From the IMG/VR virus record IMGVR_UViG_2778261214_000016, positions 1 through 12,893 of that record: DNA of 12,893 nt, one strand, 5' to 3'. Below, one piece after another: positions 1 through 6,000 of this stretch (position 1 is its first letter; every line of letters starts with the position of its first letter). A program made the position numbers. This DNA comes from a virus (Duplodnaviria; Heunggongvirae; Uroviricota; Caudoviricetes).

Positions 1-3000
1 CTCTGCCCTGTTGTCTGTTAACGGCGAGCGTAACTCCCAGAAGTCACTGGCAGAATGGATTGAAGACTGGGCCGACTACCTTGTGGGCTTTGATGCTAAT
101 GGTGACGCTATTCAGGCAACAAAAGCGGCTGCGGCGGTCCGTAAAATCACGATTGAAGCAAACCAGACCGCTGATTTTGAAGATAATGACTTCAGCGGCA
201 AACGCTCCCTGATGGAGTCTGTCGAAGCGAAGACCAAAGATATTATGCCAGTGGCATTTGAATTTAAATGCGTTCCGTTTGAAGGTCTGAAAGAACGTCC
301 GTTTAAATTACGCCTCAGCATTATCACTGGCGATCGTCCTGTACTGGTTCTGCGCATTATTCAGCTGGAGGCGGTGCAGGAAGAAATGGCTAACGAATTT
401 CGTGATCTGCTTGTTGAGAAATTCAAGGACAGCAAAGTAGAAACCTTTATTGGTACTTTCACCGCCTGATTTCATTACTGCAAATGCCCCTGCGGGGGCA
501 TTTATGGAAACGTAATTTACTCAATAATCGCCGGATGGTGAGGGATTCTTTTTACCAGAATTCAGCGCGGTGCAGCGCATATACGTGGAGAACAAAATGT
601 CATTTATCAAAACTTTTTCCGGGAAGCATTTTTATTATGACAGGATAAATAAAGACGACATCGATATTAACGATATCGCGGTTTCCCTTTCAAATATCTG
701 TCGCTTTGCCGGTCATCTTTCGCACTTCTACAGCGTCGCCCAACATGCGGTTCTTTGCAGCCAGCTGGTGCCGCAGGAATTTGCTTTTGAAGCGTTAATG
801 CATGATGCAACAGAAGCGTATTGCCAGGATATTCCCGCTCCACTGAAACGCCTTCTTCCTGACTATAAACGGATGGAAGAAAAAATAGACGCCGTAATCC
901 GTGAGAAATACGGGTTACCCCCGGTTATGAGCACGCCTGTGAAATATGCCGATCTCATCATGCTGGCAACCGAACGCCGCGATCTCGGGCTTGATGATGG
1001 CTCTTTCTGGCCAGTACTGGAAGGTATCCCGGCAACAGAAATGTTCAAAGTTATTCCACTGGCTCCGAGCCATGCCTACGGGATGTTTATGGAGCGCTTT
1101 AACGAGTTATCGGAGTTACGCACATGCGCATGAATGTTTTCGAAATGGAAGGGTTTCTTCGCGGGAAATGTGTACCACGAGATCTGAAAGTGAATGAAAC
1201 AAATGCTGAATATCTGGTGCGTAAATTTGCTGAAGCGGAGGCCAAGATTTTGGCTCTGTCCGAAGACCAACAGAAAGCGATTGAGTCAATTAAGCAGGCT
1301 GTAGCAGCTGTTAAGTTGGCACACGAGAAGTTTTCGGCGCTGGCGGCGGAGAATGCGGGGCTGAAACACGCAATGGCCGTAACTCTTGAGCATGTGTCGG
1401 TCACGGATGCAGGGCAGGCTGGTGTTGCTGCAATGATTATCAACGATGCCCTGCACCACAGCGAAACTCCAGCCACCGATGCTTTCCTGGCTGAAATTCG
1501 TGCGGAAGCACGCAACGAGGGGATTAACTATACCGCAAGCCGTCTTGCTGCTGCTTTCAATCACGGATTTATCAATAAGTCTTTACGTGAAGTTTTCGAC
1601 GTTACACGCATGATTCTGTCAGCGAAAGAAGAGTTGGCTAATGAACCACACCCGATTGATGGCCTGTCCGGTGAATATGCGGAGAAATCCCTAGAAGAAT
1701 GGGCGGAACAGATTCGCAAAGGAGGCAACCAGTGAGCAAGATTGACTATCAAGAACTGCGCGAGGCGGCGGAACAGGCAACGCAAGATGAATGGGTAGCA
1801 TATATTTTGCCGGGTCATAACGGCATTTATCCTGCGCGCACGTCTGAGGGTAGGCATTGCGGATACTTTATTGACTGGCCTGGCGTCTGTCAGGGGCGGG
1901 AGAGCATCAGCATCAGAACCTACGCAGTGAATTGCAATGACGCATGGCTAAACACCGAAGGTGATGACATCTCCGGCTCATACGTTAAGTACAAAGACCA
2001 TCAGGAAGTGGTTGCCGCTCTTGAAGCCAAGTGCGCGGCGCTGGCAGCGGAGAATGCGGGAATAAAGTCTGCAATTCCAGAATTACGGGATATTGAGGAT
2101 GACAATGACAATATGGATGACGTATCTCTCGCGGAAGACTTCGGGTTCAATCATGCAATAGAACGGATGAGGAGACAGATACCTGAAACGCCAACCACTG
2201 ATGCTTTCCTGGCTGAAGTCCGGGCGCAGGGGGTGGATGCTGCTATAGAAGCTGCAAAAAATCTGGTGGCCCAAGAATATGAGTATAAGGATTTCAAAGC
2301 GGCGCAGAGTGATTGCTGTATGTACCCTGGTTCAGACCTGGTAGGGAAGGTTGAAATGACTGAGTGGTTAGTTGACTTTGCTGCCCAGCTTCGCAAAGGA
2401 GGCAACCAGTGAGCGAAATTAATTACCAGGCACTGCGTGAGGTGGCGGAACGTGCAATTCCAGCAATGGAACGCCTGTTAATGTTGCCAGCTGATGATGA
2501 TTTGTTAAGTGAACAGGAACTTAAAGATTACGGTGTGGATATTGATGCGCTCAATGCCTTCAAATTTCTGACCGGACCAGAAACCGTGCTGGCACTACTG
2601 GATGAACGGGAAAGAAACCAGCAATACATCAAACGCCGCGACCAGGAGAACGAGGATATTGCGCTTACGGTTGGGAAGCTGCGCGTTGAGCTTGAAGCAG
2701 AAGAGAAAACATCAGCAGCTAGACTTGAGGCGCTCGACCGCACCCACAAAATGTTCCAACGGGAACAATGCAGGGCAGAGGCCGCAGAGAAGCGTATTGC
2801 TGAACTGGAGAAAAGCGAAGAGCAACTCATTAACGAGCGTGACCATGCTGAGTCTGCTTTAGCTGATATGTATTTTGCAGCAACCGGGGATAGGCCTGAG
2901 TGGAGTAACTGGTTCGGTTTTTCAGATGCAGTAGATGCCGTAGTTGACAGAATTGCTGATTTAGAAGCTAAACAGCCATCGCCAGTAGTACCTGAAGGAC

Positions 3001-6000
3001 TGATTAAAGCGGTGCGTTTTTATGAGCAGGTAAAGCGTGAGAATCCGCCAGTCGAAACCGGAGCATGGAAAGACGCTGTTGACTGGGTGCTCAAAGAGGC
3101 TTGCCAGTCTGTAAACATTGGCATCAAAGGAGAGTGATATGGCGTTAACACACCGCGAACTCTGTCAGATTGCGTACAAGTTCCTTAAGCGCAACGGGTT
3201 CAAGGTTTGTTTTCATGACCGCTTTATAGCTGTAACCAGTACCGGAGAACAGCCAGATGCTATGGGATTCAGAAATTCAGCATCATGCCTGATAGAGGCG
3301 AAGTGTTCTCGTGCTGACTTGTTGGCAGATAGAAAAAAGCGTTTTCGTAAAAATCCGTCTCTTGGAATGGGCGACTGGCGATTCTTTATTAGTGAGCCGG
3401 GAATTATTTCAATTGAGGATTTACCACCTGGCTGGGGATTACTTCACGTTGTTAACGGAAGAGTACGGAAAGTACATGGGTGGCCCAAGGGTAATTGCTG
3501 TTGGGGTAAACCTGACGATAAGCCATTTACTGGAAATAAGCAGGTTGAATGCGATTACATGTTATCTGCATTAAGGCGCATGGAGTTGAGAGGGCACCTT
3601 AATGAAATATATGACGGTGTAATTGTTAATAAGAAAGAAGGAAACGCGGCATGATCACTATTACCAAAGAGCGACTACTGACAATCAAGCAGTGGCGCGA
3701 AACATACGGACCTGGTAGCAACGTTGTACTGCCAGCAGAAGAAGCGGAAGAACTGGCACGAATTGCTCTGGCATCGCTGGAAGCAGAACCAGTTGCTTAT
3801 ATTTTCAAACATCCGGCCGGGAAATTATTCTGGGCTTTAACGGATGAAAGCAATAAAGAGCAACCGGACGTTATTCCTGTTTATGCTGACTCACCTGCGC
3901 CGGTTGTGCCGGATGAAATAGACGTAAACGATGTACCAAGGGCGGTGACATATTTCAAGACACACAGAGATTGTTACGCAGATGGCTGGAACGCCTGCCG
4001 CGCCGCCATGCTTCAGGGTAGCCAACCTGTAAGCCAAACTTACAAGTTTCCAGTTAATACACCTTGCCAGGATGCGCCAGCCCATATCTGGCTGCAAACA
4101 GCTGGAGTATGGCCAGAAGATGGCGAGTTAAGCGAATTAACGTGGTGCAGCCACAATCAGCACCATGATGACACGCTATATGTTCGAGCTGATTTGGTAA
4201 ATGGCAATTCTCCGGTAACTCCGGATGGTTGGATAAGCTGTAGTGAGCGAATGCCGGACGACAGGCAGGAGGTGAATCAATGAGCTGGCCTGATGCAATC
4301 GTAACTCTGGGGGTGGTCTTCGCAGCAGCGTTTGTTGTGTTCTCGATTTGTCGATGGGGATAACCACATGTTCGCTTTGATTCAACGCGGTCAGATATAC
4401 ACGGACAGAGCTGGATACCCCGTGGTGATTACTCGCATCACTGAGCACTCAGTGTTCTTTCGACGGATGGACGGACGATCCGGGCGGGTACGCATTGGTG
4501 AGTTAAACTGCCTGTTCGAACATATTGACCACCAGGAGTACCGCAAAATTCTCGCGAACACTGAGCAGGAAAAGCACCTGAAAAAATTACGAGCCATAAA
4601 AAGGAAGTAAAGAATGAATAAAGCATTTGAACGATGGGTCCACCAGCGTTACGGCAATCGCTATGACCTGACGCGAGATGTTGACGGCTTCTACTGTCGT
4701 GAAGTTGTGAAGCGAATGTTTGAAGTGTGGTGCCACTGCCGTGGATGAAAATTTTATGAGGTTGGCATGCAGACAATCATCTATCTGATAACCCCCAGCA
4801 AATGGTGTACGGAGAGAGTCCTCATTGCATCAACAGGGCTAAAGCCTGGCACCATTGAGCGGGCAAGAAGAAAGTCATGGATGCAGGGAAAAGAATACCG
4901 CCATTACGCTGTAGAAGGTGATCCGGGGCACTACAGTGAATGCCTGTACAACATCGAAGAAATTATGCGATGGATCGAAAACCAGAAACAACCAGGTGCC
5001 AAAAATGCAAGTTCCGGTTAACCTGTTAATGCTCCTGGACGTCTGGGAGGTTTAATGAGTAACGCATCATACCCGACAGGCGTTGAAAACCATGGAGGAT
5101 CACTCCGTATATGGTTTCACTATAATGGCAAACGTGTCAGAGAAAACCTCGGTGTTCCTGACACAGCCAAAAACCGGAAGATCGCTGGTGAACTTCGCAC
5201 TTCCGTTTGTTTTGCAATCAGAATGGGGAGTTTCGACTACGCCGCGCAGTTCCCTAATTCCCCTAACCTGAAACACTTTGGTCTGGGAAAAAGAGAGATA
5301 ACCGTTAAGGCACTTTCGGAAAAATGGTTGGACCTTAAGAAAATTGAGATTTGTGCGAATGCACTTAACCGTTACCAGTCAGTAATTAAAAACATGTTAC
5401 CAATGTTAGGTGAAAAAAAACTGGTTTCATCCATAACAAAAGAGGATTTACTTTTCGTAAGGAGAGATTTGTTGACCGGTTACCAAAAGCTTTCTAATGG
5501 AAAGACTTCTTCCATAAAAGGGCGCTCAGTGGTCACGGTAAACTACTATATGACAACCATAGCTGGAATGTTTCAATTTGCAACAGATAATGGTTATACC
5601 TCAGGAAACCCATTTAACGGTCTGGCTCCCTTAAAAAAGTCCAAGGTAAAACCAGATCCTCTCACCCGTGACGAATTTATTCGTTTTATTGAGGCTTGCC
5701 GTCATCAACAAACAAAAAACCTGTGGATTCTCGCTGTATACACGGGTATTCGTCACGGGGAGTTGGTATCGCTGGCATGGGAAGATATAGACCTTAAAGC
5801 AAGGACTATAACCATCCGTAGAAATTATACAAAACTTGGCGAATTCACTCCACCAAAAACCGATGCAGGCACCGGAAGGACAATTCATCTGGTTCAACCA
5901 GCTATTGATGCTCTTAAAAGCCAGGCGGAAATGACCATGCTTGGAAAGCAACATTCTGTAGAGGTGAAGCAGAGGGAATATGGGAGAACTGCTGTGCATA

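Follow-up and report, generated by a model that had tools for sequence, protein, structure and literature searches.

The stretch of DNA analysed here, called the window throughout, comprises positions 1 to 12,893 (12,893 nucleotides (nt)) of the IMG/VR virus record IMGVR_UViG_2778261214_000016 (Caudoviricetes), and consists of the left arm of an Escherichia coli lambdoid (CPS-53/KpLE1-like) prophage and, after it, the fim operon. In the highly mosaic accessory region of this prophage, which runs from the early genes to xis and int, lies an array of three tandem genes (1124-3137) related to the EaE and Ea22 proteins of lambdoid phages. The array is probably organized around conserved linkers which have two jobs, coupled translation and recombination, and around variable modules which are likely to set the specificity of proteins that counter host defences or modulate the host. 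Rather than a new kind of system, the array illustrates in detail the mosaicism at boundary sequences for which lambda-like phages are known.

All three genes, like every other feature of the array, are read on the plus strand and are intact open reading frames (ORFs). Gene 1 (1124-1735, 203 amino acids (aa)) encodes an EaE/Oad2-family protein composed, in order, of a YfdS-like N-leader, a coiled coil, a first anchor (anchor 1), an internal cassette, a second anchor (anchor 2), a C-domain and the tail RKGGNQ. Gene 2 (1732-2412, 226 aa, GTG start) is a hybrid, in which the Ead/Ea22 N-motif and N-domain are followed by anchor 1, a cassette, anchor 2, a different C-domain and the RKGGNQ tail, and gene 3 (2409-3137, 242 aa, GTG start) is of the Ea22 type, with a small N-domain, a helix of about 100 residues, a distinct C-domain and the terminal IKGE. 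The leader of gene 1 is about 47 aa long (1124-1264); phrog_583 matches its residues 1-47, and identity breakpoints fall at 1220-1250. Anchor 1 of gene 1 (1328-1374), a conserved linker and putative recombination point, codes for SALAAENAGLK, and anchor 2 (1463-1504) codes for ETPATDAFLAEIRA; together they bracket a hypervariable cassette of 38 aa (GLKHAMAV...HHSETP, 1358-1471). The second copies of the anchors, at 2029-2075 and 2185-2226, bracket the 45-aa cassette of gene 2 (GIKSAIPELRDIEDDNDNMDD..., 2059-2193), and gene 3 contains a widely shared Ea22 coiled-coil block, LLDERERNQQYIKRRDQENEDIALTVGKLRVELE (2583-2702).

Comparison of the window with itself gave three direct repeats: 1692-1780 with 2369-2457 (89 nt, 78% identical), 1328-1374 with 2029-2075 (47 nt, 77% identical, holding GCGCTGGC[G/A]GCGGAGAATGCGGG at 1337 and 2038) and 1463-1504 with 2185-2226 (42 nt, 86% identical), so that the near-identical blocks about 700 bp apart which a first-pass annotation of this DNA had pointed out are real. 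The 23-mer CGCAAAGGAGGCAACCAGTGAGC occurs exactly at 1715-1737 (junction 1) and at 2392-2414 (junction 2), the second copy lying 1 nt away from the position first given for it (2391-2413). It reads CGC AAA GGA GGC AAC CAG TGA, that is, RKGGNQ and a stop; as had been described before, the TGA overlaps the GTG start of gene 2 or gene 3, and the Shine-Dalgarno (SD) sequence AAAGGAGG lies within the K-G-G codons. Chance similarity of the junctions was ruled out, the 23-mer appearing in 0 of 200 shuffles. At the protein level, genes 1 and 2 are 29% identical over 142 aa (E 2e-9), mostly in ALAAENAG.K, TP.TDAFLAE.RA and A.Q.RKGGNQ, genes 2 and 3 are similar in residues 1-32 only (E 4e-4), and genes 1 and 3 showed no similarity to each other; the common C-terminal motifs of the first pair and the common N-terminal module of the second, both proposed earlier, are therefore borne out.

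The name of three Ea22-like paralogs, on the other hand, does not fit the family assignments. The Pfam family Ead_Ea22 (PF13935, gathering cut-off 27 bits) matches gene 2 with 98 bits and gene 3 with 105 bits, whereas gene 1 has no match to PF13935 or any other Pfam family. Gene 1 matches phrog_614 (E 7e-91), is 36% identical over its full length to gp27 of phage HK446, named Oad2 (BLASTP, E 6e-34), has a counterpart annotated as "Eae protein" in phage Lys8385Vzw, and carries the whole EaE/Oad2 scaffold of N-leader, AENAG anchor, TDAFLAE anchor and RKGGNQ tail. Gene 2 is similar to Oad2 over residues 97-226 (E 8e-13) and to lambda Ea22 over residues 1-21 only, and is by homology a hybrid of an Ea22 N-terminus with an EaE-type (gene 1-type) C-terminal half. 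Residues 1-137 of gene 3 are 49% identical to lambda Ea22 (E 2e-28) and include the near-identical block LLDERERNQQYIKRRDQENEDIALTVGKLRVELE; judged in the same way, gene 3 is a true lambda-Ea22 homologue with a different C-terminal domain.

The window was then compared with 241 related loci, which were chosen by similarity to genes 1-3 and taken from IMG/VR and from records of phages or genomes, and the ends of blastn matches of at least 90% identity were taken as breakpoints. Match ends pile up at the repeats, namely at 1330 (28 starts of high-scoring segment pairs (HSPs) in this bin), 1460-1500, 1710-1780, 2180-2230 and 2380-2410, and further peaks are seen at 2580, 2690-2700, 3110, 3650, 3790 and 4200-4260. 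The Ea22 coiled-coil block has breakpoints at both of its ends, with 32 HSP starts in the 2580 bin and 125 ends in the 2690-2700 bins. The junction, with up to 4 substitutions allowed, was found 305 times in the 241 loci, always on the plus strand and one to three times per locus, and its 192 unique contexts consist of 36 upstream and 32 downstream clusters in 97 combinations. Lambdoid boundary sequences are recognized by being conserved at the boundary with differing flanks, and this is how the junction of the window behaves. The shared motifs are thus real module boundaries and not degenerate similarities, and the arrangement is not invariant. Module order and copy number vary among homologous prophages, and the stretch enclosed by the same two flanks (the end of yfdR and the 3139 gene) varies in length across the loci, with differences of -1130 to +211 bp.

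Pieces of the region 1000-3300 (at least 90% identity) are present in 4201 of the 5426 complete E. coli genomes, in a median of 2 places per genome and in up to 12. The full arrangement is found in only 4 of these genomes, one of which is O55:H7 DEC5D, where it stands in a different prophage context, and its few carriers have identical copies. Scanning species-representative genomes, one per species, for exact 20-mers gave 4 matches and is uninformative on spread.

Concerning translation, stop and start codons overlap or are spaced by 1 nt at 1124/1133, 1732/1735, 2409/2412, 3137/3139 and 3651/3654, and inside 1124-4283 no sigma-70-like promoter was found on the plus strand, nor any convincing terminator. 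These signals suggest that yfdR, gene 1, gene 2, gene 3 and the genes at 3139 and 3651 are read, in this order, as one translationally coupled chain. The SD of genes 2 and 3 is AAAGGAGG in the K-G-G codons and that of the 3139 gene is AAAGGAG in K-G-E, and the distance from the SD to the start codon is 6-9 nt. With the SD in the last codons of the upstream gene and the stop overlapping the start, translation of the downstream gene by coupling is proposed. The string GGAGGCAACCAGTGAGC is retained at Ead/Ea22-type starts which were located by the protein motif alone, and it is kept where the upstream gene is unrelated (...NPGKGGCQ and ...YFYEGGDQ before the stop) or has a frame that ends a few codons sooner. 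Because the string is kept regardless of the upstream frame, the junction appears to belong to the translation-initiation region of the downstream gene; GGAGGCAACCAGTGAGC would be the initiation region of an Ead/Ea22-type gene, with its SD placed in the last codons of whichever gene precedes it. Conservation of third codon positions in the junction and in both anchors comes close to that of first and second positions, while third positions in the neighbouring coding sequence decay normally.

A plainer account would take the junction as purely a coupling signal, with KGGNQ and KGE as by-products and any role in recombination incidental. The strong SD (AAAGGAGG or AAAGGAG) 6-9 nt from the starts, the stops that overlap or abut the starts and the fact that the string travels with the downstream gene all agree with this account, which is compatible with linkers of two jobs rather than opposed to them. 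As the whole explanation it is unlikely, since it leaves unexplained the two internal anchors and the crossovers at all three repeats.

As side observations, the boundary at 3630-3656 (...AAGAAGGAAACGCGGCATGATC) has the same design, with the SD in the last codons (KKEGNAA and stop) and the stop/start overlap ATGA. Moreover, 54 nt of the Actinobacillus phage vB_Apl-pPE4, annotated as Ead/Ea22-like, are 90.7% identical to the junction and Ea22 start; the host of this phage, Actinobacillus pleuropneumoniae, belongs to the Pasteurellaceae, outside the Enterobacteriaceae.

The internal anchors are best understood from the homologues of gene 1, in which the nearly invariant sequences SALAAENAG.K and TPATDAFLAE.RA bracket a cassette of 28-94 aa. 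The versions of the cassette are mutually unrelated within proteins that are otherwise 75-99% identical, and they fall into 14 clusters in the loci and into at least 22 unrelated types, all at the same position, among the 252 proteins with both anchors. The cassette of gene 2 is also present in gene-1-type backbones elsewhere (P0146 and P0167). Altogether, 17 N-module, 13 cassette and 12 C-domain clusters are combined in 53 distinct triples (148 instances), and almost every C-domain type terminates in A.QLRKGGNQ. A phmmer search with gene 1 against 1.84 billion representatives gave 835 clusters at E <= 1e-3, most of which match module by module, and the family of gene 3 shows the same design.

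Several loci are explicit recombinants of modules of the window genes. The single gene of L071 consists of the N-part of gene 2 (1741-1884, 95%), then anchor 1, cassette and anchor 2 of gene 1 (1335-1504, 94%) and then anchor 2, the C-domain and the junction of gene 2 with the N-terminus of gene 3 (2185-2695, 97%), and the last two segments overlap within the 42-nt anchor only, which places a crossover inside anchor 2. L114 has the N-part of gene 2, gene 1 from anchor 1 on and then gene 3, and L232 has the C-terminus of gene 1 joined straight to gene 3 at the junction, gene 2 being missing. In these three loci adjacent segments are 92-99% identical to different window genes, and the crossovers, which are deduced from sequence, appear to lie inside the linkers, the overlap of segments being confined to the 42-nt anchor or the junction repeat. 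In L064 and L066 the YfdS-like leader is followed by gene 2 from anchor 1 on, with matches to the window from 2020 onward.

These data also bear on the possibility that the array arose by tandem duplication and divergence, its motifs being kept for the needs of the protein (an oligomerisation helix, a fold core or the C-tail) and recombination having no special role. The motifs do lie in predicted helices of a coiled-coil protein and are conserved at the protein level across the family. Nevertheless, genes 1 and 2 are only 29% identical as proteins, yet their anchors are 77-86% identical in DNA, with synonymous sites conserved, and the junction string is present even behind an unrelated or closed upstream frame. 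In addition, flanks combine many-to-many, modules are incongruent across phages and in chimeras the two sides of an anchor match different window genes at 94-97% identity, all of which makes such a history, taken by itself, improbable.

The mechanism proposed for the linkers is as follows. The junction, the AENAG anchor and the TDAFLAE anchor are short near-identical DNA islands common to many lambdoid phages, co-resident or infecting. Within these islands homologous recombination would cross over, its most plausible agents being phage recombinases of the Rad52 type, which work on short diverged homology, and would reassort N-modules, the hypervariable internal cassette, C-domains and whole genes; the pattern of reassortment is observed and the enzymes are presumed. 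Rad52-like phage recombinases are known to make mosaics on short, diverged homology, and for pairing Red-beta needs a segment of at least 23-27 bp and RecA one of at least 31-34 bp (De Paepe et al., PMC3945230); the exact junction here is 23 bp. The proteins would probably be oligomeric coiled-coil scaffolds which present the variable modules to host targets.

The first-pass annotation had gone further and spoken of a recombinational cassette system, which is too strong if a dedicated mechanism is meant, because neither silent cassettes nor significant inverted repeats were found, and the ORFs scanned include no invertase or reverse transcriptase. Programmed rearrangement was looked for in the forms of a shufflon, a diversity-generating retroelement and silent cassettes; the inverted repeats are imperfect and 12-17 nt long, and all copies are complete ORFs, so none of these forms is present. 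Under programmed switching, the tandem genes would frequently serve one another as donor and acceptor within one genome, by gene conversion or deletion at the repeats, and a single prophage would produce domain-swapped variants in a short time, as in pilin and surface-antigen systems. It would be allowed by the direct repeats (42-89 nt, exact cores 14-23 nt), which share orientation and frame and are spaced by about 700 bp, and L232 resembles the product of a junction-by-junction exchange just as L064 and L066 resemble an exchange between the copies of anchor 1. However, since all three copies are complete and apparently expressed, none of them is a silent cassette; the window yielded neither a dedicated recombinase nor a set of inverted repeats or a reverse transcriptase; the full arrangement is identical in its few carrier genomes; and the modules occur in hundreds of phage backgrounds, which fits exchange between phages. 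Programmed switching is therefore considered very improbable, more so than any other account discussed here.

What the variable modules may do is indicated by Oad2. This protein is reported to bind directly to the P2 defence protein OLD, an ATPase-TOPRIM tRNase, and to inhibit it, and it is described as "related to P22 EaE" and at times fused to EaD/Ea22, whereas a homologue from phage HK75, 54% identical to Oad2, is reported to give no protection (bioRxiv 10.64898/2026.07.10.737580, a July 2026 preprint). Oad2 has the leader of gene 1, both anchors, the QLRKGGNQ tail and the identical 23-mer, after which comes a truncated Ea22 stub. Comparison of Oad2 with HK75 gp28 (54% in BLASTP, as in the preprint) showed that the two are near-identical in residues 1-72 and in both anchors and have unrelated cassettes and C-domains. 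Because they differ only in the cassette and C-domain and yet differ in activity, the cassette and C-domain would carry target specificity. By extension, the variable modules are most likely the specificity determinants of counter-defence or host-modulating proteins, and genes 1 and 2 would encode such proteins with specificities other than that of Oad2. Since their cassettes and C-domains differ from those of Oad2, inhibition of OLD by genes 1 and 2 cannot be assumed, and activity against OLD is doubtful. The earlier guess of an anti-defence function fits the preprint insofar as a protein of gene 1 architecture inhibits OLD. Ea22 proteins of lambda and Shiga-toxin (Stx) phages favour lysogeny and form tetramers, as experiments on the lambda, Phi24B and P27 proteins have shown, and they have a coiled coil, variable C-domains and no known partner (PMC7093339, PMC10834534).

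A separate observation on HK446 (L243 4027-4090) is that oad2 is followed by the 23-nt junction and a 20-codon Ead/Ea22-type stub (VSKIDYQALREIAKHQRLTE and stop). This is a leftover boundary whose downstream gene has been deleted.

Several points weigh against the reading of two-job linkers and specificity modules. The placing of crossover initiation in the linkers comes from the sequence pattern, and conserved islands also end BLAST matches, while the motifs might be maintained by selection on protein function alone. The stretches of exact identity measure only 23, 18 and 14 nt and reach at most the minimal length published for pairing, and the only recombinase genes in the window are those of the prophage integrase and the fim switch recombinase. 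The locus counts are biased by the way in which the loci were picked. With respect to function, the anti-defence role derives from one preprint and from homology of 36% (gene 1) and 31% (gene 2); genes 1 and 2 have variable parts unlike those of Oad2, so that neither OLD nor any other defence system need be their target; the sole published phenotype of Ea22 is pro-lysogenic, with no known partner; and the AlphaFold2 (AF2) model of gene 1 is poor, with a predicted local distance difference test score (pLDDT) of 55.

A second type of boundary, ATCAAAGGAGAGTGAtATG (3122-3141), lies at the end of gene 3. Here the SD is formed by the K-G-E codons, and a single nucleotide separates the stop after them from the ATG with which the next gene begins. 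All Ea22 proteins are reported to end in K/RGE, of "significance unknown" (Dydecka et al., PMC7093339). The tripeptide is coded by AAAGGAGAG followed by TGA, and gene 3 ends with ATCAAAGGAGAGTGA, that is, IKGE and stop. The ending ...ATCAAAGGAGAGTGA(T/G)ATG was found in 165 instances and 55 contexts, with many different downstream genes starting 1 nt after the stop. Because many different genes start with an ATG 1 nt behind this string and its TGA, the tail looks like the ribosome-binding site of the next gene, and it is best explained as such an SD and not as a functional peptide motif, which would settle the published puzzle. Such an explanation was not found in the Ea22 papers searched. In lambda itself (L242 2848-2870, minus strand) the ending is ...GAGTGAGATC, with ATC replacing ATG and no downstream gene, and its K/RGE string is, on this explanation, a relic.

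The array can be set beside four known systems. Gene 3 resembles lambda Ea22 in its GTG start overlapped by the upstream stop, its SEIN.QALRE N-terminus, the block LLDERERNQQYIKRRDQENEDIALTVGKLRVELE, the terminal IKGE and the three-part architecture, and gene 2 resembles it in the N-terminal motif and the Pfam match. However, the C-domain of gene 3 is unrelated to the solved lambda C-domain, gene 2 has an EaE-type C-half replacing the long coiled coil, and gene 1 is outside the family by Pfam. Gene 1 resembles P22 EaE and Oad2 in the N-leader (..EM.GFL.GKC.PRDLKVNETNAEYL), the AENAG and TPATDAFLAE anchors, the QxRKGGNQ tail and the 23-nt junction, and gene 2 corresponds to the EaD/Ea22 fusions noted in the preprint (bioRxiv 10.64898/2026.07.10.737580), although genes 1 and 2 have cassettes and C-domains unrelated to the ones in Oad2.

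According to the classical boundary-sequence model, lambdoid phages exchange at short conserved sequences that lie at gene boundaries and have unrelated modules as flanks in different phages (Susskind & Botstein 1978; Clark et al. 2001, HK620; both as cited in PMC3233612). In the genome record of Sf6 the first 31 nt of the Ead/Ea22-like gene 21 are annotated "bsq3; boundary sequence"; this is the stretch matched by the junction repeat of the window. Set against this annotation and the secondary citation, the window differs in having two more linkers inside genes, bracketing a cassette, and in that its intergenic linker doubles as the SD and start of the next gene. The fourth system is yfdQ-yfdR-yfdS-yfdT of K-12 CPS-53 (KpLE1). 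The window has the same upstream yfdQ and yfdR with DUF551 modules nearby, the first 47 or so residues of gene 1 match phrog_583, and a related E. coli locus (H10) is annotated there as of the YfdS family; the leader, however, continues into an EaE-type body instead of the YfdS-linked DUF551 module, and two Ea22-type genes come next.

Much of this is already published or annotated: the Ea22 family and its mosaicism, including swapped C-domains and two or three variants per genome (PMC10834534), the boundary-sequence concept, relaxed phage recombination and the anti-defence role of an EaE relative. The details which were not found described are the intragenic anchors that bracket a cassette, the three independently assorting slots, the junction as an initiation region and the explanation of K/RGE. 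Their wider meaning is that the exo-xis/ea region of lambda-like and Shiga-toxin phages has long been viral "dark matter", and the window maps the build of its largest genes. A bolder and tentative idea, which is less likely than the reading given above, is that the four linkers and three slots form a population-wide exchange scheme for counter-defence specificity, in which the cassette and C-domain choose the immune protein to be neutralised (OLD-type nucleases or others). If this were true, prophage arrays of two to four genes would give a broad and quickly renewable counter-defence repertoire, and the linker DNA itself would be under selection because it keeps the modules exchangeable. From the map of the genes itself it is predicted that swaps of cassette and C-domain between Oad2 and the HK75 homologue, or with genes 1 and 2, should transfer or abolish OLD inhibition.

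Structure prediction agrees with the assignment of gene 3. Its AF2 model (pLDDT 79.5) has a helical N-domain (1-54), a single helix at 57-159 with pLDDT above 90 and a weaker C-terminal part of three helices; together with the IKGE end this is the three-part architecture published for Ea22 (PMC10834534), with the terminal K/RGE. Gene 2, which ends in KGGNQ, has no long coiled coil. For gene 1, the AF2 model from an alignment of 30 sequences is all-helical and too poor for a fold search. The best match of the gene 3 model in a Foldseek search of the PDB had an E value of 1.8, and NCBIfam and PADLOC scans gave no meaningful matches; the sole PADLOC match, of gene 3 to DruC, is weak (E 0.0017) and lies in the coiled coil, so that no defence model is matched. 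PHROG 4790 ("host RecBCD nuclease inhibitor") matches the coiled coil of gene 3 (residues 79-181, 2643-2951, E 8.8e-9), which may be coiled-coil bias; the match is worth recording as the family neighbour Oad2 acts in a RecBCD/OLD-linked pathway. Kinship of gene 3 with the next-but-one gene was rejected by pairwise comparison, although both match phrog_660.

The mosaic genes of the EaE/Ea22 family seem to be systematically mis-called. In DEC5D (L001 12125-12259), where the region is 100% identical, the PGAP annotation of gene 1 is confined to its first 135 nt, which are labelled an "incomplete" pseudogene, and databases hold a 237-aa version of gene 2 from an upstream ATG at 1699. The mosaic anatomy described above explains both mis-calls.

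As to the surroundings of the array, the gene order is yfdQ (11-469), yfdR (570-1133), genes 1-3, two small genes, DUF4222, xis (4767-5021) and int (5055-6341). The yfdR-type gene encodes an HD 5'-deoxynucleotidase (phrog_318, E 4.8e-111; annotated yfdR in DEC5D), and its stop codon overlaps the start region of gene 1 (ATG at 1124 or 1130). Gene 3 is followed by the next coupled gene (3139-3654, phrog_9263/631), whose stop overlaps the next start (ATGA at 3651), and by a mosaic gene of the same modular region (3651-4283, 210 aa); all of these are on the plus strand. The DUF551 profile matches the very C-terminus of the latter in its first 16 of 68 positions only, and high-identity phage matches break at 4200-4260, so the DUF551 module is apparently cut by another mosaic joint.

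Beyond int lie a truncated fimD, fimC, fimI, fimA and fimE. The integrase gene abuts the fimD remnant (6389-6727, minus strand), which codes for the first 112 aa only, and the prophage therefore appears to be inserted in this type 1 fimbrial usher gene. The int/fimD junction is shared by 3 of the 5426 complete E. coli genomes, and these three have an extra IS3 element which is absent in the window.

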